Origin: Actinomycetota bacterium
GTDB lineage: Bacteria > Actinomycetota > Acidimicrobiia > Spongiisociales > UBA11373
NCBI GenBank assembly: GCA_016870535.1
Contig: VGBK01000002.1
Span: forward strand, 2,841 to 66,840
DNA: 64,000 nucleotides
Reading direction: 5' to 3'
The translations under genes were made by a program, and so were the position numbers. Shown piece by piece: positions 1 through 50,525 of this stretch. Numbering within the stretch: the first letter of the stretch is position 1; the number at the start of each line of letters is the position of its first letter. Below the pieces are notes generated by a model that was not told where the DNA came from, did no database searches, and worked only from the letters and a program-made list of their open reading frames with translations.

Positions 1-150
1 CGTCCGTGCCCGGGGTGTCGTTGTTCAGGTGGATGTACCAGGTCTGCCAGCCGTCGTCGTGGGCGAGGAAGACTGAGCAGCAGGTGGAACCGGTCCAGGC
101 GACCGTGGCGGCGGCGGCGGCGTAGACCGGCGTCATCTTCGGAGCCATGA
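1..150 (-). CDS. Hypothetical protein, N-terminal 50 aa only. The gene runs off the window start.
   Basis: ATG at 150..148 is preceded by a GAGGGAG ribosome-binding site. Translation reads MAPKMTPVYAAAAATVAWTGSTCCSVFLAHDDGWQTWYIHLNNDTPGTD and stays open to position 1. Not in the ORF track because it is truncated. Confidence 0.4.
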
Positions 151-532
151 TGTCCACTCCCTCGTGCCGCCGGGTGCATCCTCCACGGCAGGCCCCGAAG
201 CCCAGGCCGTGCTCCTCGGTGAGGGTCAGCCCCGACCCTCCCACCGGGAACACCAGTGGGTACTCGACGCGCTGGCCGTAGACGAACGGCCCGGAGGGTA
301 CCCCCGGAGCAGCCGATGCCGCCGCAGGGCCCAGTGGACCGCCGCTCCACCCCAGGAGCAAGAGAGCGATCGCCCCCAACGCCCCCAGGCGCAAGCCGAG
401 ACGATTGGCCATGCGGATTCCATCGGACGCCACCGGGCCGAACCTGACCCGAATCGCCGGCGGGACGGGAACGGGGACGGCTCGGCAGGAAGGCCCGTCG
501 TGCCGATGCCTGCCGGGGAAGCGCCGGCAGCC

Positions 533-1792
533 ATGATCGGGGCGAGTACCCTGCGGCCCGGCCGACGGCGGCGAGCGCGCCGCTCCCCGCTGCGATCGAG
601 GAGGCACGCCATTAGATCGTTCCGGCTCGTTCCCGCTCTGCTTCTCATCGCGGTGGCCTTGGCCGTGACGCGCCCCTCGGAGGCCGCCGACCATCTTTGC
701 TTCGGGAAGGCCGCCACCATCGTCGGCACCCCCGGTCCAGACACCATCGTCGGCACCCCCGGTCCAGACGTCATCGTCGGGCGCGGGGGCAACGACCACA
801 TCTCCGGGCGGGGCGGCAACGACCTCATCTGCGGCGGACCGGGTGACGACGTGCTGCTGGGAGAAGACGGCGCCGACTCCCTCGACGGCGGCGACGGAGC
901 CGACGTCCTCCGGGGCGGCCGCAGCGCAGACCTGCTGCGGGGAGGCGCCGGCCCCGACTTCATCGTCGGGGGCACAGGAGCCGACACGGCGCGGGGCGGC
1001 CCCGGCCGAGACTCCTGCACCGCCGAGACTGCGTCGGGCTGCGAGCAGCCCATCGTGATAGACCACACCACCGCCGACTTGAGCCGCATACCCGCAGCCT
1101 GGCGGCGGCTGGCGGCCGAACGCGTGGTGTGGGCCTACGGCTCCACCTCGCACGGCACGCAGGTGTGGACGGGGGCGGAGTACCTGAAGTCCCTTCTCGG
1201 ATCGACGGCCTACCCCTTCGCCCGCGGGTGGCACGCCGTCCCGGCCCAGACCGCCCCGCCTCGGCTCCGCATGGCGTACGACTCGGGATGGTCCTGGGAC
1301 CCCGCCGCCTTCTACAACACGGCTGCCGCCCTCCTCGCCGATGCGCCCCAGGCCAATGCCTTCATGTGGTCGTGGTGCGGCGAACTGTCTTGGGACAACA
1401 CCGCCGTGGACGCCTACCTGCGCGCCATGAAGCGCCTCGAAGTCGACTTCCCCGGAGTCACCTTCGTGTACATGACGGGCCATACCGACGGCCCGGGGGA
1501 CCAGATGCTCGAGAGGAGCAACCAGAGGATTCGCAACCACGCGCTGGCCCGCAGCAAGGTCCTGTACGACTTCGCCGACATCGAATCCTGGAGCCCGGCG
1601 GGCACCCACTACCCCGGCACCGACGACTCCTGTACCTGGTGCCCCGCCTGGTGCGCCGCCCACCCCGGCGATTGCTCGGGCCTCTCGGCCCAGCCGTACG
1701 ACTGCGCCCACTCCCATCGCTTCAACTGCGTGGTTAAGGGGCGGGCTTTCTGGTGGCTGTCGGCCCGTCTCGCCGGCTGGGGAGGCGCGTGA
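533..1792 (+). CDS. Secreted protein with RTX-type (GGxGxD) calcium-binding beta-roll repeats and a Cys-rich C-terminal domain of unknown function.
   Basis: The ORF track begins at 164, but an internal Met at 533 is followed by an RRRRARR motif and a hydrophobic stretch (LLLIAVALAVT..SEA), a signal-like N-terminus. Repeats run GTPGPDTIVGTPGPDVIVGRGGNDHISGRGGNDLICGGPGDDVLLGEDGADSLDGGDGADVLRGG. The C-terminal roughly 230 aa are paralogous to the next gene. Confidence 0.6.
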   Translation: MIGASTLRPGRRRRARRSPLRSRRHAIRSFRLVPALLLIAVALAVTRPSEAADHLCFGKAATIVGTPGPDTIVGTPGPDVIVGRGGNDHISGRGGNDLICGGPGDDVLLGEDGADSLDGGDGADVLRGGRSADLLRGGAGPDFIVGGTGADTARGGPGRDSCTAETASGCEQPIVIDHTTADLSRIPAAWRRLAAERVVWAYGSTSHGTQVWTGAEYLKSLLGSTAYPFARGWHAVPAQTAPPRLRMAYDSGWSWDPAAFYNTAAALLADAPQANAFMWSWCGELSWDNTAVDAYLRAMKRLEVDFPGVTFVYMTGHTDGPGDQMLERSNQRIRNHALARSKVLYDFADIESWSPAGTHYPGTDDSCTWCPAWCAAHPGDCSGLSAQPYDCAHSHRFNCVVKGRAFWWLSARLAGWGGA

Positions 1793-2679
1793 GGCCGGCT
1801 CTCGCCCTGGGCGGTCTCGCCCTCCTGGCCGCCGCCTGCGGGGGAGGGAGTGCTTCGACCACCTCGACCCCGGCCACCACCGGAGCCCCGGTCCCCACCG
1901 CCACCCCGGCCGCTACCACCGCCGCGCCCACCACCGCCGTGCCCACCACCACCGCCCCGCCTGCTGCGACTGCGCTGGTGGCCGACCACGCGGCCGCCGC
2001 GGTCCCGGTCCCGGCGGAGTGGCGCGAGCGCGCCGCCGCTGAGGTCGTGTGGGCCTACGGGTCCACCTCACACGGCACCCAGGTCTGGACGGGGGCGGAG
2101 GCACTGGGGGAGGGGTTCCCCTTTGCCCGGGAGTGGCACGCCGTGCCCGGGTCGGACGCCCTCCGCATGGCCTACGACGACGGCTGGTCCTGGGATGCCG
2201 CGACCTTCTACGACACCGCCGCCGCCCTGCTGGCCGATGCGCCCACCGCGGACGCCTTCATGTGGTCCTGGTGCGGGGAGTTGTCCTGGGACACCACCGC
2301 CGTAGAGGCCTACCTCGCCGCCATGGGCCGCCTCGAAGCCGACTACCCAGGGATCACCTTCGTCTACATGACGGGCCACACCGACGGGCCGGGACACCGG
2401 GTCTTGGAGCAGAACAACCAGGCCATCCGGGACCATGCCGCCGCCCGCGGCAAGGTGCTCTACGACTTCGCCGACATCGAATCCTGGGACCCGGACGGCA
2501 CCTTCCATCCCGACACCGACGACTCCTGCCCCTGGTGCGCCGGGTGGTGCGCCGCCCACCCGGAGGACTGCCCCGACCTGCCGGGCGACTGCGCCCACTC
2601 GCACCCGTTCAACTGCATCCTGAAGGGCCGGGCCTTCTGGTGGCTGTCGGCTCGCCTGGCGGGGTGGGACGGGGCGTAG
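1753..2679 (+). CDS. Putative lipoprotein, paralog of the upstream gene's C-terminal domain. It has a Thr/Pro/Ala-rich linker and the same Cys-rich domain of unknown function.
   Basis: Lipobox-like LLAAACGGG is followed by a TTSTPATTGAPVPTATPAATTAAPTT linker. The rest aligns to the 533..1792 product (VVWAYGSTSHGTQVWTGAE ... SWCGELSWD ... YMTGHTDGPG ... DDSCPWCAGWCAAHPEDC ... DCAHSHPFNC ... GRAFWWLSARLAGW). Its start overlaps the end of the upstream gene. Confidence 0.6.
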   Translation: MAVGPSRRLGRRVRPALALGGLALLAAACGGGSASTTSTPATTGAPVPTATPAATTAAPTTAVPTTTAPPAATALVADHAAAAVPVPAEWRERAAAEVVWAYGSTSHGTQVWTGAEALGEGFPFAREWHAVPGSDALRMAYDDGWSWDAATFYDTAAALLADAPTADAFMWSWCGELSWDTTAVEAYLAAMGRLEADYPGITFVYMTGHTDGPGHRVLEQNNQAIRDHAAARGKVLYDFADIESWDPDGTFHPDTDDSCPWCAGWCAAHPEDCPDLPGDCAHSHPFNCILKGRAFWWLSARLAGWDGA

Positions 2680-2691
2680 CCCGCCGGCGAC

Positions 2692-5388
2692 TCACCGCAC
2701 CCGGGGGTCGGCCGTCTCCGGGTCGATCTCATAGCGGGTGAGGGCGTCGGCCACCAGCGCCGCCGCTATCCGGCCCTCGGCCGCCAGGGCGCTCAACACT
2801 GCCACCACCACATGCCCGGCGTCCACCTCGAAGAAGCGCCGCAGGGCCTCCCGGGTGTCGCTGCGCCCGTAGCCGTCGGTACCGAGGGGGACGAAGGTGC
2901 CGGGAACCCACCGGGCCACCTGGTCGGGCACCGCCTTCATGTAGTCGGTGACCGCCACCACCGGCCCGGGAACCTCGCCCAGCGCCCGGGTGACGAACGG
3001 CAGGCGGGGCGTCTCGGCCGGGTGCAGGCGGTTCCAGCGCTCCACCTCCAGCGCCTGCTCCCGCAGGGCCTTGTACGAGGTGGCGCTCCACAACTCGACC
3101 CCCAGTCCGTAGTGGGAGGCCAGGTCGGCCTGCGCCTGCCGAGCAGCGCGCTGTGCCGGCCCTGAGAACAGGATCGCTCCCGACGGCGGCACTCCCTCCG
3201 GTGCCGGCGCCCAGCGGTACAGCCCGGCGATGATCCCCTCATCCACCCCCTGCGGTCTGGGGGGCATGGCGTAGTTCTCGTTGTAGAGGGTCAGGTAGTA
3301 GAAGACGTCCTCGCCCTCCGGCCCGTACATCTCCTGCAGGCCGTGCTCCACGATGGCCGCCATCTCATAAGCGAAGGCCGGGTCGTAGGCCCGGCACACC
3401 GGCACGGTGGAGGCGAGGAGGAGGCTGTGGCCGTCCTGATGCTGCAGGCCCTCGCCCAAGAGGGTCGTCCTCCCGGCGGTGGCCCCCAGCAGGAACCCGC
3501 GGGCCCGGGCGTCCCCGGCCAGCCAGACCAGGTCGCCCACCCGCTGGAAGCCGAACATCGAGTAGAAGGTGAAGAAGGGCGCCATGGGCACGCCCCGGGT
3601 GGCATGAGAAGTGGCGGCGGCGATCCACGACGCCATCGAGCCCGCTTCGGTGATGCCCTCCTCGAGGATCTGGCCGTCGCGGGACTCCTTGTAGGAGAGC
3701 AGCAGGTGGTGGTCCACCGGCTCGTACAACTGCCCCTCGGAGGCGTAGATGCGCAGTTCCTTGAACAGGGCGTCCATGCCGAAGGTGCGGCCCTCGTCGG
3801 GGATGATGGGAACGACCCGCGGCCCGAAAGAATCGTGCCGGGCCAGGTTGCGCAGGAGCCGGGTGAAGGCCATGGTCGTCGAGACCTCCTGCGTCCCCGA
3901 GCCGGCGTCGAACTCGGAGAAGGGCCCGTGGTCGGGCAGGACCAGCGGGCGGCGCAGCTCCACCGGCCGGCTGGGGAGCGGCCCGCCCAGGGCCCGGCGC
4001 CGCGCCAGCAGGTACTGCACCTCCGGAGAATCCACCGGCGGCCGGTAGAAGGGAGGCTCCCGGCCTTCTTCCAGGGCGGCGTCGGGGATCTCCGTCTGCA
4101 GCTGCAGCCGGTCGCGCAGCGCCAGCAACTGATCGTTGGAGAGCTTCTTGATCTGGTGGGTGGCGTTGCGTCCCTCGACGTCCGGGCCCAGGGTCCAGCC
4201 CTTCACCGTCTTGGCCAGGATCACCACCGGAGCGCCCCGCAGGTCCACCGCCGCCCGGTAGGCGGCGTACATCTTGCGGTAGTCGTGCCCCCCGCGGCGC
4301 AGCGCCCAGACCTCGTCGTCGCTCATCCCCGCCACCAGGCGCCGCAAGCGCGGGTCGGGCCCGAAGAAGTGCTCCCGCACATAGCCCCCGTCCTCGGCCT
4401 TGAAGCGCTGGTACTCGCCGTCGACGGTGGTATTCATCTTCTGGACCAGGACGCCTTCGGCATCCCGGGCCAGCAGCGGGTCCCAGTTGGCCCCCCAGAT
4501 GACCTTGATGACGTGCCAGCCGGCGCCGCGGAAGAAGGCCTCGAGCTCCTGGATGATCTTCCCGTTGCCCCGCACCGGGCCGTCGAGGCGCTGCAGGTTG
4601 CAGTTGACCACCCACACCAGGTTGTCGAGGCGCTCCCGGGCGGCCAGCGAGATGGAGCCCAGGGTCTCCGGCTCGTCCACCTCGCCGTCTCCCAGGAAGC
4701 ACCACACCCGGGAGGCCGACGTGTCGTCGAGGCGGCGGTGGTGCAGGTAGCGGTTGAAGCGCGCCTGGTAGATGGAGTTGATCGGGCCGAGCCCCATCGA
4801 GACGGTGGGGTACTCCCAGAAGTCCGGCATCAGCCGAGGGTGCGGATAGGAGGACAGCCCCCCGCCGCCGATCTCCCGCCGGAAGCGCAGCAGTTGGGCC
4901 TCCTCCAGGCGGTGCTCCAGGAAGGCCCGGGAGTAGATGCCGGGGGCGGCGTGTCCCTGGATGTAGATGTGATCGCCGGGGTTGCCGTCGGCCTTGCCGC
5001 GGAAGAAGTGGTTGAACCCCACCTCGTAGAGGGCAGCCGAGGAGGCGAAGGTGGAGAGGTGCCCGCCGATGCCGTCGGCCGCCTTGTTGGCCCGCACCAC
5101 CATGACGGCGGCGTTCCAGCGGATGATGCGCCGGATGCGGCGCTCCAGGTCCTCGTCGCCGGGGAACCAGGCCTCCTGCTCCGGGGGGATGGTGTTGATG
5201 TAGGGGGTGCTCACCGAAGCGGGCACGCCGATGTTGCGCTCCCGCGCCCGCTCGATGAGGCGAGCCATGAGGAAGCGGGCGCGGCTCTCCCCGGCCCGAT
5301 CGACGATCTGGTCGAGGGCCTCGAGCCACTCCCGGGTCTCGTCGGGGTCGGCGTCGGGCAGTTGGTGGACGAACCCGTCGATGATCAT
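2692..5388 (-). CDS. aceE: Pyruvate dehydrogenase E1 component, homodimeric type.
   Basis: 898-aa ORF with hallmark AceE sequence along its whole length (thiamine-diphosphate binding region, GDGE..NLVWVVNCNLQRLDGPVRGN). Confidence 0.9.
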   Translation of the reverse strand: MIIDGFVHQLPDADPDETREWLEALDQIVDRAGESRARFLMARLIERARERNIGVPASVSTPYINTIPPEQEAWFPGDEDLERRIRRIIRWNAAVMVVRANKAADGIGGHLSTFASSAALYEVGFNHFFRGKADGNPGDHIYIQGHAAPGIYSRAFLEHRLEEAQLLRFRREIGGGGLSSYPHPRLMPDFWEYPTVSMGLGPINSIYQARFNRYLHHRRLDDTSASRVWCFLGDGEVDEPETLGSISLAARERLDNLVWVVNCNLQRLDGPVRGNGKIIQELEAFFRGAGWHVIKVIWGANWDPLLARDAEGVLVQKMNTTVDGEYQRFKAEDGGYVREHFFGPDPRLRRLVAGMSDDEVWALRRGGHDYRKMYAAYRAAVDLRGAPVVILAKTVKGWTLGPDVEGRNATHQIKKLSNDQLLALRDRLQLQTEIPDAALEEGREPPFYRPPVDSPEVQYLLARRRALGGPLPSRPVELRRPLVLPDHGPFSEFDAGSGTQEVSTTMAFTRLLRNLARHDSFGPRVVPIIPDEGRTFGMDALFKELRIYASEGQLYEPVDHHLLLSYKESRDGQILEEGITEAGSMASWIAAATSHATRGVPMAPFFTFYSMFGFQRVGDLVWLAGDARARGFLLGATAGRTTLLGEGLQHQDGHSLLLASTVPVCRAYDPAFAYEMAAIVEHGLQEMYGPEGEDVFYYLTLYNENYAMPPRPQGVDEGIIAGLYRWAPAPEGVPPSGAILFSGPAQRAARQAQADLASHYGLGVELWSATSYKALREQALEVERWNRLHPAETPRLPFVTRALGEVPGPVVAVTDYMKAVPDQVARWVPGTFVPLGTDGYGRSDTREALRRFFEVDAGHVVVAVLSALAAEGRIAAALVADALTRYEIDPETADPRVR

Positions 5389-28873: not shown

Positions 28874-28952
28874 GCGGACATCGTACCGGCACCCCGGGCC
28901 TCCCCGGACGCGACGAAGGGCCGCCTCGCGGCGACCCTTCGTCCAAGAACCG

Positions 28953-29066
<114 letters not shown>

Positions 29067-29395
29067 TCTCGCGTGCTCGGCACCCCGAGCACTCCATAGC
29101 GAGCACTCACGTCTGAATTCACAAGCCCTCGGCCGATTAGTACCGGTCGGCTCAACGCATTGCTGCGCTTCCACCTCCGGCCTATCAACCTGGTGTTCTG
29201 CCAGGGGCCTTACCCGCGAACGGTGGGAGGTCTCATCTTGGAGCCGGCTTCGCACTTAGATGCCTTCAGCGCTTATCCGTGCCGTACATAGCCAACCAGC
29301 AGTGCCCTTGGCAGGACAACTGGCACACCAGAGGTACGTCCATCCCGGTCCTCTCGTACTGGGGATAGGTCTCCTCAAACCTCCTGCGCCTGCGA

Positions 29396-29427
<32 letters not shown>

Positions 29428-29446
29428 AAACCCAGCTCGCGTACCG

Positions 29447-29502
<56 letters not shown>

Positions 29503-30034
29503 GGCCGACATCGAGGTGCCAACCCTTGCCGTCGATATGGACTCTTGGGCAAGATTAGCCTGTTATCCCCGGGGTACCTTTTAGCCGATGAGCCACGGCG
29601 CTTCCACATGCCGCCGTAGGATCACTAGGCCCTGCTTTCGCATCTGCTCGACTCGTAGGTCTTGCAGTCAAGCTCCCTTGTGCCCTTACACTCGCCGTCT
29701 GATTGCCGACCAGACTGAGGGAACCTTTGGGCGCCTCCGTTACATTTTGGGAGGCCACCACCCCAGTGAAACTGCCCGCCAGGCACCGTCCCTAATCCGG
29801 ATAACGGACCGAGGTTAGAAGCCCGATATGCCAAGGGTGGTATTTCAACGCTGACTCCACAACGGCTAGCGCCGCTGCTTCCAAGTCTCCCACCTATCCT
29901 ACACATGCCACACCAGACTCCAATGCCAAGCTGCAGTAAAGGTCCCGGGGTCTTTCCGTCCTGTCGCAGGAAGTGAGCATCTTCACTCACACTGCAATTT
30001 CGCCGAGTCCGTGGTTGAGACAGCGCCCAAATCG

Positions 30035-30089
<55 letters not shown>

Positions 30090-30832
30090 CACATTTGTTA
30101 CTACCTGCCCGTGATGTTCGCAGGCGAGGTGGCCAGGTCATTTCTGCCTGGCTCCTCATGTCGCCATGAGGGTCGGACTGTCTCATCGCCCTTCACAAGG
30201 GCGCCTGGCGTACAGTCTCTGAGGATCCTGCCAGAATCTGATCCAGGGTTCGCGCCCGCTGCTTTCCCACTCCGTTCATGGTGTAGGCCAGCCGGATCAG
30301 GCGTTCGAATCCTGCTCTCACGAGGTGTTCCTTCTTGCGCATTGCCCTCACGATGAGAGCGAAAGTCTCGAAGTCCTGACGCTTGACGATGAGAGGATGC
30401 CTCTCGAAGAACGGCACTACGCACCGTTCCAGATCGGACATCCTGCGCACTTCAAAGGTCAATACCGAGCTCTTCGGTCCCTTCTGCCGGATGAATCCGC
30501 ATCCGAAGAGCCGCCGGATTCGTTCGAGTGCCTCCCGACCGCGCTCGTGCTGGTAGACCTGGAAGACAGCCTGAAGCTGCCACCCGTTGGTCATCTTCGC
30601 ACCCGGATTCCGGTGGATCGACACGGAGAAGCATCCCTCTCCGTCGACGAACCCACAGAGCCAGTTCGGGTCGAGAGCCGATTCCTGAGTTTCCTGCTGA
30701 TAGTCCGCACCGGAAGGATTGTCACTCATCATGCCGGCACCGTATCGCACGGCACTGACAGTAATGAGTACCTCCGGATTCCCGGATGTCCCAGCATACA
30801 GCCAGGTTTTGCAACCGCCAGGTCGCTAACCG
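30090..30832 (-). mobile_element. Intron (probable group I) in the 23S rRNA gene, carrying a LAGLIDADG homing endonuclease gene.
   Basis: The conserved domain IV sequence ...GGCGGUAACUAUAACCGU | CCUAAGGUAGCGAAAUUCCUUGUCGGGUAAGUUCCGACC is contiguous in other bacteria. Here it is split by 743 nt. The insertion ends in G before exon 2, exon 1 ends in U, and a GCGGUU tract within the intron is complementary to the exon-1 terminus (AACCGU), giving a P1 with a G·U pair. Confidence 0.7.
30193..30750 (-). CDS. LAGLIDADG-family homing endonuclease, single-motif homodimeric type, encoded in the 23S intron.
   Basis: 185 aa. The N-terminal motif LCGFVDGEGCFSV is the canonical LAGLIDADG dodecapeptide. 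The ORF is on the rRNA sense strand and lies entirely inside the insertion. Confidence 0.8.
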   Translation of the reverse strand: MRYGAGMMSDNPSGADYQQETQESALDPNWLCGFVDGEGCFSVSIHRNPGAKMTNGWQLQAVFQVYQHERGREALERIRRLFGCGFIRQKGPKSSVLTFEVRRMSDLERCVVPFFERHPLIVKRQDFETFALIVRAMRKKEHLVRAGFERLIRLAYTMNGVGKQRARTLDQILAGSSETVRQAPL

Positions 30833-31752
30833 ACGGTTATAGTTACCGCCGCCGTTTACCGGGGCTTAGGTTCAGAGCTTCGCCACCGAAGTGGCTAACC
30901 CCTCCCCTTGACCTTCCGGCACCGGGCAGGCGTCAGAGCGTATACAGCGTCTTGCGACTTAGCACGCTCCTGTGTTTTTAGTAAACAGTCGCTTGGGCCG
31001 AGTCACTGCGGCCTCCTCGGGCTCGAGCATGCGAAACGCTCTCACCCTACCGAGGCGCCCCTTCTCCCTAAGTTACGGGGCGATTTTGCCGAGTTCCTTA
31101 ACCACGGTTCTCTCGCTCGCCTTGGTATTCTCTACCTGTCCACCTGTGTCGGTTTGGGGTACGGGCACCTTGTGCACTCGCTAGAGGCTTTTCTCGGCGG
31201 CATGGGCGTTCGGCAGCTTCTCCTAAAGCGGATCGGCATCACGCCTCAGGCTTAGTGGGGTCCGGGTTTGCCTGGACCCCGCCCTACACGCTTGCCCCGG
31301 GTCAACCAACGCCCGGGTCTGCTTACCCTTCCGCGTCACCCCATCGCTGGCCTAGTGCCGGCCGGTTCGGTAGGCCCCGAAGGGCTTTCCTTAGCAGGCC
31401 GGGGTCGGCCGTGGCGCGCACATGGTGGTACTGGAATATCAACCAGTTGTCCATCGACTACGCCTCGCGGCCTCGCCTTAGGTCCCGACTAACCCTGGGC
31501 GGACGAGCCTTCCCCAGGAAACCTTGGACATTCGGCGGGGGAGATTCTCACTCCCCATTCGCTACTCATGCCGGCATTCGCACTCCAGCAGCCTCCACGG
31601 CTGGCTCCCGCCGCCGCTTCGCTGGCTGCTCGACGCTCCCCTACCGATCCCGCCGCCTGGACCCGTCCCCCGAAAGGAACAGGCCTGGCTGATGGCGGAA
31701 TCCCGCAGCTTCGGTGCTGGACTTGAGCCCCGTTACATTTTCCGCGCAGAAC

Positions 31753-31822
<70 letters not shown>

Positions 31823-33126
31823 AGCAATTCCACATCGTTCCCCACTTAGTCCAGACTTTGGGACCTTAGCTGGCGATCTGGGCTGTTTCCCTTTTGACCA
31901 GTGAGGCTCATCCCCCACGGTCTGACTGCCGCGCTGTGGCACCATGGCATTCGGAGTTCGACTGAGATCGGTAAGCTTGTAGGCCCCCTAGCCCAATCGG
32001 TGCTCTACCTCCACGGTGGAATGCGCGACGCTAGCCCTAAAGCTATTTCGGGGAGAACCAGCTATCGCCGAGTTTGTTTGGCCTTTCACCCCTATCCACA
32101 GGTCATCCCCCAGGTTTTCAACCCTGGTGGGTTCGGGCCTTCGCGAGGTCTTACCCTCGGTTCACCCTGCCCATGGATAGATCACTCGGCTTCGGGTCTA
32201 GAGCACGCGACTAGACGCCCTATTCAGACTCGCTTTCGCTGCGGCTACGGCTCTCGCCTTAACCTTGCCACGTACCGCTAACTCGCCGGCTCATTCTTCA
32301 AAAGGCAGGCCGTCAGGCCCCCGAAGGAGCCCTCCGACTGCTTGTAGGTCCACGGTTTCAGGTTCTATTTCACTCCCCTCACCGGGGTGCTTTTCACCTT
32401 TCCCTCACGGTACTGGTTCACTATCGGTCGCTGGGTAGTACTTAGCCTTACGAGGTGGTCCTCGCAGATTCACACGGGATTTCACGTGCCCCGTGCTACT
32501 TGGGAACTCCACACGGAGGCCGGTGCGCTTTCGCCTACAGGGCTGTTACCTTCTGTGGCCCTCCTTTCCAGGAGGCTTCGGCTAGCACCCGGCTTGGTAA
32601 CTCCGCAGCAGTGCCGGCGCACTGCTCAGTGGGTCCCACGACCCCGACACGGCAACGCCACCGGGCTATCACGCCGTGTCGGTTTAGGCTCATCCCGTTT
32701 CGCTCGCCGCTACTCAGGGAGTCGCTGTTGCTTTCCATTCCTCGGGGTACTGAGATGTTTCAATTCCCCCGGTTGCCTCAACCGGCCCTATGTGTTCAGA
32801 CCGGAGCGGCCGGGCATTACCCCGGCCAGGTTTCCCCATTCGGACATCCCCGGGTCAAAGCCTGCTTGACGGCTCACCGAGGCTTATCGCAGCCTGCCAC
32901 GTCCTTCATCGGCTCCCAGCGCCAAGGCATCCACCGTAGACCCTTAGTAGCTTGTTGGTAGAATCCAAGACGCTTGTGCTCGCTATGCAGTTCTCAAGGT
33001 GCCGGAGGAATCGGGTTTCCCCGCTCCCTCACGACTGAACAGTGTGTCCGACCGACCCGAAGGCCGCTCGTTTCAGCCGTCGCATTGACTGGGTGCTCGA
33101 GGCCGAAAGGCCTCAGTGAGCTCCTT

Positions 33127-34657
<1,531 letters not shown>

Positions 34658-34659
34658 CG

Positions 34660-34995
34660 TAGATCTCGGCCCTGAGGCCGGAATCCGTGTGTGAGTCTGA
34701 AGGCGGGTCTTTGGCCAAACCATTCACCCGCCCGCACCGCGTCTTGGTAGCGCGGTGCACTTGAAGTACGACCGACCACAGACGGCACGAAGCCGCCCGC
34801 GGAGGGCTCGACTGGCTGTTGACACACTGTTCAGTTGTCAAGGAGCCGGGATGTCAGCCACCCAGGCGTCGCCCGCGAGGACACGCCTCAGGTGCGGCAC
34901 GTAACCCTAGCCGCTCTGCCCGTCCAGGTCAAGACACAACCGCGGCGGCGCCGGTGGCTGGCCGACGCCCCGGCACTAGGCTACCGTCGCGCCCC
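34660..34995. promoter_or_regulatory. Divergent promoter region: rRNA operon leader and promoter on the minus strand, tyrS promoter on the plus strand.
   Basis: On the minus strand, CTTGACA lies at about 34843..34837 upstream of the 16S leader. On the plus strand, TTGACA at 34819-34824 lies upstream of tyrS. Confidence 0.4.
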
Positions 34996-50331: not shown

Positions 50332-50397
50332 GAGCCGCTCCAAGTCCACGACGGCCTCCACCGCAACGGGGGCGCGGCCGCGAGCGAGCGGCGCGAG

Positions 50398-50525
50398 CCC
50401 TCCTTCTCCCATCCGGACTCTCACCGTCGGCCCCGGAGTCGCACCGGGTCGGCCCCCATCGGGGGTTCGCGGGCTGTACCGCCGGTCGGGGATTTCACCC
50501 AGCCCTGAAGAAGGGCCTGACGCCG
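50398..50525 (-). ncRNA. FMN riboswitch (RFN element) in the rib operon leader.
   Basis: The minus-strand RNA reads CUUCAGGGCUGGGUGAAAUCCCCGACCGGCGGUACAGCCCGCGAACC...GACGGUGAGAGUCCGGAUGGGAGAAGGAGG. It matches the conserved RFN blocks (GGGUGAAAUUCCC, ACCGGCGGUA..AGCCCGCGA, GACGGU.AAAGUCCGGAUGGGAGAAGG). Confidence 0.8.

Follow-up and report, generated by a model that had tools for sequence, protein, structure and literature searches.

What is the domain that two adjacent genes at one end of this DNA both encode, and what could it do outside the cell? The window, by which we mean the whole 64,000-nucleotide (nt) stretch of contig VGBK01000002.1 (positions 2,841 to 66,840; assembly GCA_016870535.1), comes from a freshwater actinobacterium of the Acidimicrobiia. 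Two overlapping genes, here called A and B, encode products that both carry export signals and that share a cysteine-rich C-terminal domain. A sequence-only reading had described the pair as paralogs with an apparently extracellular Cys-rich enzyme or binding domain that it could not place in any family. In our analysis, structure prediction places the domain in a strongly diverged, unannotated family with the SGNH hydrolase fold. We consider it probable (about 0.6) that the family comprises extracellular Ser-His acyl-esterases or acyl-transferases acting on glycans.

The relationship between the two copies is not in doubt. BLASTP aligned the products of genes A and B with 168 identities over 230 residues (73%, E = 5e-109) across a C-terminal domain of roughly 240 amino acids (aa), and all the motifs listed in the sequence-only reading are visible in this alignment. 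Low complexity is confined to a Thr/Pro-rich linker in one product and to a repeats-in-toxin (RTX) region in the other, so that the similarity of the domains is not compositional, a possibility that the sequence-only reading had raised as a potential objection. When the domain was compared with Pfam, NCBIfam and the sequences in the PDB, both as a single sequence and as a 116-sequence profile, nothing reached threshold. All the relatives whose source names we saw were called ‘hypothetical protein’, and a literature search on the motifs HTSHG, STSHG, DFADIE and MWSWCG and on SGNH-related terms returned nothing relevant. Pfam hits to the haemophore family MHB in 11 members fell on a short helix (…TREYLDAHPDCN…) inside the domain and were treated as spurious. 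The domain thus belongs to no named family at the sequence level, as had been claimed; it was the fold that allowed it to be placed.

The AlphaFold2 (AF2) model of the gene B domain, built from a 116-sequence alignment, had a predicted local distance difference test score (pLDDT) of 94.9 and a predicted template modelling score (pTM) of 0.92, and in the model of the mature gene A product the pLDDT exceeded 90 through most of the domain. The modelled domain is a three-layer α/β/α fold around a five-stranded parallel sheet, with the elements in the order β1-α1-(hairpin)-β2-α2-β3-α3-β4-α4-β5-[insert]-α5, which we take to be the topology of SGNH enzymes such as TesA. A Foldseek search against the PDB returned the peptidoglycan O-acetyltransferase PatB as the top match (E = 4e-4, template modelling (TM) score ~0.45), followed mostly by other SGNH proteins. 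Traces of the same relationship could be seen below threshold in the sequence: Lipase_GDSL_2 aligned to gene B with E = 0.026 at full length and 0.012 for the domain alone, and also appeared in 6 of 69 relatives (best E = 0.0021) and in the orthologue at the syntenic locus L009 (E = 0.0015). None of the relevant Pfam models, among them Lipase_GDSL, Lipase_GDSL_2 and CE2_N, formally matched the window proteins, and the best alignments to PF13472 and PF00657 reached 15–19.5 bits (E = 0.0015–0.03) against a gathering threshold of 32.9 bits for PF13472.

How far the family has diverged becomes clear when it is set beside characterized SGNH/GDSL proteins. Small members such as BT3161 (PDB 4h08), 4rsh, 4rw0 and the C. 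thermocellum CE3 esterase (2vpt) have the strand and helix order in common with the domain, as well as, judging by topology, a conserved Ser after β1 and a [D/E]-x-x-His before the last helix, yet their sequence identity to it is just 7–11%. Their GDS(L) motif, block-II Gly and G-x-N-D are replaced here by T-S-H-G, W-S-W-C-G and T-G-H, and this family adds an N-terminal D-H motif and a Cys-rich insert of about 37 residues between β5 and the His. Among extracytoplasmic SGNH domains that act on cell-wall glycan, PatB (7tjb), the C-terminal domain of OatA (5ufy, 6vjp) and Ape1 (4k3u) gave TM-scores of only ~0.42–0.47 at 7–13% identity. The SGNH fold underlies several CAZy carbohydrate esterase families, among them CE2, CE3, CE12, CE16, CE17 and CE20. 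No relationship in sequence could be detected to the CE2 enzymes (CtCE2, 2wao; CjCE2, 2waa), whose features include neither the Cys-rich insert nor the His-rich site; CE2_N, in turn, is missing from the window proteins. The complete Ser-His-Asp/GDSL canon is not followed by CE2 enzymes either.

To locate a candidate active site, we aligned 254 full-length domains to the family hidden Markov model (HMM) and counted conserved residues, numbered here along the 239-aa model of the gene B domain (window 1960-2676). His10, Gly39, Gln41, Tyr118, Thr138, Asn153, Asp169, Lys222 and Trp227 were kept in all 254 domains, His213 in 253, Ser37 and His38 in 252 each, Arg157 in 251, Cys105, His140 and Asp172 in 250 each, and Glu174 in 248. 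The β1-α1 turn (G-x-T-S-H-G) contains Ser37, which follows β1 by three residues and stands where α1 begins. No GDS motif surrounds it, and by topology this Ser would be the counterpart of the SGNH block-I nucleophile. His213 precedes the last helix (216-233) by two residues and ends a block-V-like D-x-x-H motif, [E79/D72/S59]-C-A-His213, in which 151 of 254 domains (~60%) have an acidic residue, Asp or Glu, at position 210; both window copies read D-C-A-H. The oxyanion residues of blocks II and III are not conserved among these domains: position 75, after β2, is Gly in only 118 of 254, and the segment after β3 reads S-W-C-G-E/Q without Asn. The stretch after β4 is T-G-H, and the invariant Asn153 sits inside a helix. 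His10, His38, Cys105, His140 and Asp169 are specific to this family.

Rare degenerate copies serve as an independent check and indicate that several of the proposed site residues belong together. The second copy in the two-domain protein P0132 (residues 710-982) carries S37E, C105S, H140P and H213Q at once, and P0241 (residues 173-403) carries S37P, H38F, C105G and H140P; both are likely pseudo-enzyme modules. Moreover, in each of the four sequences without Cys105, a further residue of the proposed site is missing as well. From this joint loss it appears that Ser37, His38, Cys105, His140 and His213 behave as one functional unit. The sequence-only reading had singled out GHTDG and CAHSH as possible catalytic or metal sites. 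Both do look like active-site elements, and CAHSH is better understood as SGNH block V ([D/E]-x-x-His) than primarily as a metal site. Two related proposals were discarded. His200 (W-C-x-x-H-P) is a poor candidate for the catalytic His, being kept in just 81% of domains (otherwise N, Y or R) and forming part of a Cys motif in the insert. A metallophosphoesterase-like interpretation of DH…GHTD…AHSH does not agree with the SGNH fold, and His215 is kept in only 83%.

The insert itself, C190-x2-C193-x3-C197-x2-H200-P-x2-C204…C211, probably holds disulfides. Its C-x2-C-x3-C-x2-H-P-x2-C spacing is the same as that of TACI CRD2, a cysteine-rich domain of the TNF-receptor type (PF09305); the Pfam TACI-CRD2 model gave weak matches in 10 of 69 members (best E = 5e-4), and the family profile aligned to the TACI structure in the PDB at a non-significant E of ~1. 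Cys193 is Ala in 23 sequences, 15 of which also lack Cys204, and this joint loss fits a Cys193-Cys204 disulfide, which would presumably resemble the C89-C100 pairing of TACI. However, TACI CRD2 is a receptor module, here the insert lies inside an enzyme fold, and the match is short and statistically marginal; the likeness is almost certainly convergent or that of a generic disulfide knot. The number of conserved Cys, seven, is odd, which probably leaves one of them without a partner; we suspect Cys105. Additional Cys residues occur at position 207 in 47 and at position 216 in 55 of the 254 domains, which suggests an extra, subfamily-specific disulfide.

The family is large and mostly exported. 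A word-indexed search gave relatives in 2,836 clusters at 90% identity, and when representatives at 50% identity were searched exhaustively with HMMER, at least 1,811 matched with E ≤ 1e-3, 551 of them with E ≤ 1e-30. Scanning one genome per species yielded at least 580 loci with the domain. The best 80 of these at least 580 loci (L005-L084) all come from metagenome-assembled genomes (MAGs), with no cultured isolate among them, which may explain the absence of a curated model. These 80 are distributed over Anaerolineae and other Chloroflexota, Acidimicrobiia, Acidobacteriota, Planctomycetota, Zixibacteria, Bdellovibrionota, Patescibacteria and a few archaea (Nanoarchaeia, Methanobacteriota). 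A hydrophobic, signal-like N-terminus was present in 208 of 266 family proteins (~78%), and a lipobox-like motif in 90 of the 266, all within those 208. Tandem copies of the domain were also seen at a few other loci (L033, L037).

The modules that accompany the domain in multi-domain relatives point in the same direction. They include anchoring and sorting elements (dockerin, S-layer homology (SLH) domains and sorting tails of the type IX secretion system (T9SS)), glycan-binding modules (PA14, CBM60, CBM96) and repeats common at cell surfaces (fn3, Ig-like, FG-GAP, DUF11, right-handed β-helix). In P0150 a CE2_N β-sandwich (residues 197-267) stands directly upstream of the domain (262-560), which we take to be the slot that the SGNH catalytic domain occupies in CE2 acetyl-esterases; P0231 has CE2_N upstream of the domain as well. 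This pattern supports an extracellular enzyme acting on glycans, in agreement with the earlier impression that the shared domain looks like an extracellular Cys-rich enzyme.

Given the fold, the conservation pattern and the partner modules, we infer the following roles for individual residues, together with the chemistry and the class of substrate. The gene A product would be secreted with a calcium-binding RTX β-roll at its N-terminus, and the gene B product would be tethered to the membrane surface through a lipid anchor and a flexible Thr/Pro-rich linker. Ser37 of T-S-H-G would be the residue that attacks the ester, which would most plausibly be formed by an O-acetyl group or another acyl substituent of an extracellular glycan or of a polymer in the cell envelope. 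His213 of [D/E]-C-A-H, before the last helix, would serve as general base, with help from either Asp210 or the invariant Asp169. The oxyanion and substrate pocket would be lined by His38, Cys105/Gly106 and His140 where Gly and Asn are canonical, and the disulfide-stabilised Cys-rich insert could form a lid or a substrate-binding lobe. If this interpretation is correct, thousands of exported ‘hypothetical’ metagenome proteins from Chloroflexota, Acidimicrobiia, Acidobacteriota, Planctomycetota, Zixibacteria and other groups become annotatable as SGNH-fold esterases or transferases, and the analysis names specific residues for mutation. Since the domain is found in many proteins that are cellulosome-like, sorted by T9SS or equipped with CBMs, it may define a carbohydrate-esterase family that has so far gone unrecognised and is relevant to polysaccharide turnover in soils, sediments and lakes.

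Several observations weigh against this interpretation. The family lacks the canonical motifs: GDS(L) does not occur, β3 is not followed by a conserved Asn, and the block-II Gly is poorly conserved. Profile comparison with hhalign, in which the 254-domain alignment was set against a canonical 93-sequence GDSL subfamily seeded from L002, returned a probability of 0.6%, and the weak Pfam alignment puts block V at His200-Pro201 instead of His213. No conserved gene neighbourhood across 84 loci hints at a substrate. Topology and conservation are the basis for the proposed geometry of Ser37 and His213, for the choice of the acid and for the disulfide pairings. Finally, the site is unusually rich in His (10, 38, 140 and 213) and in acids (Asp169, Asp172 and Glu174) and contains a conserved, maybe unpaired Cys, a composition that would also suit metal-dependent or other chemistry.

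These last features leave some room for new chemistry. A site rebuilt as a His/Cys-rich centre (His10, Ser37, His38, Cys105, His140 and His213) under a disulfide-knotted insert might act on an environmental polymer in a way that is not ordinary de-O-acetylation, such as by metal-assisted or Cys-dependent chemistry. We regard this as doubtful; if it were true, the family would be a new functional class of extracellular enzyme. For this window the gain is mainly one of annotation. Unlikely, too, is the reading in which the SGNH scaffold has been repurposed, with His10, His38, Cys105, His140, Asp169, Asp172, Glu174 and His213 binding a metal, or Cys105 acting as the nucleophile, instead of Ser-His ester cleavage. 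The four His and three acids kept in at least 98% of domains (248-254 of 254) and Cys105 kept in 98% go far beyond the four residues of the SGNH set, one of seven Cys is probably free, Cys105 is lost only along with other site residues, and the usual Asn/Gly oxyanion residues are missing. However, by element order Ser37 and His213 occupy the positions of the SGNH nucleophile and base, and each is present in 252 or more of the 254 domains. The structural neighbours are overwhelmingly SGNH-fold enzymes, and no metal-enzyme family was detected by sequence or fold.

A second question is whether the acyl chemistry is directed at the cell's own wall. The domain could be an O-acetyl esterase or O-acetyltransferase for peptidoglycan or another wall glycan, in the manner of Ape1, PatB or OatA, working alongside the neighbouring M23 endopeptidase. 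The three wall enzymes are among the Foldseek matches, with PatB at the top, the gene divergent from gene A encodes a Peptidase_M23 protein with two PG_binding_1 domains, and a lipid-anchored copy facing the wall would fit such a role. The Acidimicrobiia MAG of L009 has its genes in the same order, M23, domain gene, aceE and ybaK, and an M23-like gene also lies upstream in L008. Against this, the M23 linkage is confined to close relatives and may be plain synteny. Clustering of open reading frames (ORFs) across the 84 loci yielded no conserved neighbour: the recurrent clusters consisted only of ORFs antisense to the domain, generic histidine kinases or ABC transporters, with no recurrent wall-related gene and no acyltransferase-3 or PatA-like membrane protein, the kind of acyl-translocating partner to which genes for such wall enzymes are usually linked. 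The occurrence of the family in archaeal MAGs and together with dockerin, CBM or PA14 modules also points to external glycans, and a dedicated wall enzyme seems to us improbable, to about the same degree as a repurposed scaffold.

It is very unlikely that the domain is a GDSL-type lipase, lysophospholipase or thioesterase with lipids or small esters, and not glycans, as its substrates. Many structural neighbours are annotated as lipolytic GDSL, TesA, PAF-AH or PlaA, and the gene A RTX region weakly matches NCBIfam models for polyurethane esterase (PueAB) and serralysin-type proteases. Yet the partner modules (CBM60, CBM96, CE2_N, PA14, dockerin, β-helix) are glycan-binding or cell-surface ones and not lipid-related, and a polar or carbohydrate ligand may be expected from the conserved Arg157, Lys222, Asn153 and Gln41 and from the many Trp. 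That the domain is a non-catalytic binding or structural module, comparable to the OSK domain of Oskar with its SGNH-like fold without enzyme activity, would agree with the missing SGNH motifs but is hardly credible, given that clustered polar residues at strand ends are 98–100% conserved across many phyla, including archaeal and Patescibacteria (candidate phyla radiation) MAGs, and that site residues are lost jointly only in rare degenerate copies, a pattern typical of an active enzyme.

The export and anchoring modules of the two products differ, as the sequence-only reading had recognised. The gene A product begins with a signal-like segment, and its orthologue P0011 begins MRSARLLSALLLAAAALLLAATPGAAA at the aligned position. 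Eleven canonical nonapeptides follow, as in other RTX β-roll proteins; they match Pfam HemolysinCabind (PF00353) with 85.3 bits (E = 2.4e-24, cut-off 23), and the AF2 model shows a short strand every ~9 residues through most of the stretch. In classical substrates of the type I secretion system (T1SS), an N-terminal signal peptide is absent and the repeats lie upstream of a C-terminal secretion signal, whereas in gene A they are N-terminal, come after a Sec-type signal peptide and precede the putative catalytic domain; gene A thus does not have the features of a T1SS substrate. Its β-roll is probably a calcium-stabilised spacer or adhesion module. The gene B signal reads MRPALALGGLALLAAA-C17 with the lipobox LLAAAC, in keeping with what we take to be the PROSITE-type lipobox rule, [LIVMFWSTAG](2)-[LIVMFYSTAGCQ]-[AGS]-C, and the Cys at the aligned lipobox position is kept in gene B orthologues. 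The gene B product is therefore predicted to be a membrane-surface lipoprotein, in which a 45-residue Thr/Pro/Ala-rich stretch separates the lipid anchor from the domain. Export through the twin-arginine translocation (Tat) pathway, for which SRRLGR upstream of gene B and SRRHAI in gene A were considered, is not favoured: relatives show ordinary Sec or lipoprotein signals, and the likely start of gene B lies downstream of SRRLGR.

Where the two genes start bears directly on these signals. The ORF list gives plus-strand frames at 164-1792 and 1753-2679, in a window with a G+C content of ~72%. For gene B, GTG 1789 is most likely the start, as identical DNA occurs on Joint Genome Institute (JGI) metagenome contigs, where the 100% identical protein P0001 is called from this codon at 296 aa; the in-frame upstream GTG 1753, used in the sequence-only reading, is less likely. 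GTG 1789 overlaps the gene A stop codon by 4 nt (GTGA), an overlap that suggests a two-gene operon whose members are probably transcribed together and coupled in translation. On the JGI contigs a divergent minus-strand gene, that of the M23 peptidase, takes up the sequence upstream of window position ~412, and the gene A start cannot lie upstream of ~413 for this reason. The earliest ordinary start codon (ATG, GTG or TTG) open to gene A is ATG 533. Alternatively, gene A may start at a rare in-frame ATT 611, which lies 6 nt after AGGAGG (599-604) and aligns with the Met of the orthologue P0011 (MRSARLL… versus IRSFRLV…). The JGI gene call, GTG 665, would cut off the signal peptide. The plus-strand extension of the first ORF (164-532), which overlaps the real M23 gene, and a minus-strand ORF at 226-1089, which overlaps the M23 gene and gene A, were both dismissed as high-GC artefacts. 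A consensus scan of 350-2800 for promoters and terminators gave no sites.

One claim of the sequence-only reading had to be given up, namely that the duplication is recent. The domain copies are 75% identical in nucleotides overall and 62% identical at third codon positions, despite a G+C content at third positions (GC3) of ~0.9. The gene A domain is 73% identical to that of gene B and 74% identical to that of P0011 from another metagenome, and the distance between A and B about equals the distance of gene B to its orthologues in other metagenomes. By these comparisons the duplication is old. At the syntenic locus L009 (4591-6738), the slot between the M23 peptidase and aceE holds a single 715-aa lipoprotein, in which a ~450-aa N-terminal region without a Pfam match precedes the SGNH-like domain; P0105 and P0054 match the end of this region just upstream of their own domains.

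Table 1. Positions of genes A and B, of their parts and of other features in the 64,000-nt window
Feature	Position (nt)	Strand	Remarks
Gene A, coding sequence	533..1792	+	419 aa from ATG 533; signal peptide, RTX β-roll and SGNH-like domain in that order
Gene A, N-terminal export signal	533..685	+	Arg-rich n-region, hydrophobic core LVPALLLIAVALAV, SEA|A cleavage-like site; read from sequence
Gene A, RTX-type nonapeptides	725..1021	+	11 in tandem (G-x-x-G-x-D-x-U-x), residues 65-163; predicted calcium-binding β-roll module
Gene A, SGNH-fold domain	1046..1789	+	candidate nucleophile Ser206, 1148-1150; candidate base His393, 1709-1711; Cys-rich insert, 1589-1705
Gene B, coding sequence	1789..2679	+	296 aa from GTG 1789; identical protein P0001
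Gene B, lipoprotein signal peptide	1789..1839	+	M-RPALALGGLALLAAA-C; lipobox Cys17 at 1837-1839; read from sequence
Gene B, flexible Thr/Pro/Ala-rich linker	1840..1974	+	45 residues, after the lipobox
Gene B, SGNH-fold domain	1975..2676	+	His10, 1987-1989; Ser37, 2068-2070; Cys105, 2272-2274; Asp169, 2464-2466; His213, 2596-2598
Gene B, Cys-rich insert	2485..2595	+	between β5 and block-V His213; C-x2-C-x3-C-x2-HP-x2-C, TACI CRD2-like
Divergent Peptidase_M23 gene	1-412	-	window begins inside it; two PG_binding_1 domains; also at L003, 7488-8624
Long ORF	2692-5388	-	898 aa; convergent, downstream of gene B; read as pyruvate dehydrogenase E1 (aceE)
Ribosomal RNA (rRNA) operon, complete	28948-34660	-	16S, 33129-34660; 23S, 29117-32957; 5S, 28948-29064
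Flavin mononucleotide (FMN) riboswitch (RF00050)	50397-50516	-	107.6 bits, E = 4.7e-24

Besides the long convergent ORF read as aceE, a smaller convergent ORF downstream is read as ybaK-like; both identities come from inspection of the translations and from matches of 85% and 74%, respectively, in the syntenic MAG. The low-GC stretch of the window is due to the rRNA operon. Its 23S gene aligned to a 2,925-position model over 3,841 nt, and ~760 nt of additional sequence fall between model positions 1399 and 2240. Models for group I introns gave no match at E ≤ 0.1. Inside the 23S gene and on the same strand, the ORF 30193-30750 matches the homing endonuclease family LAGLIDADG_1 (E = 1.4e-16), and the gene thus looks as if it holds an intron or intervening sequence with a homing endonuclease.

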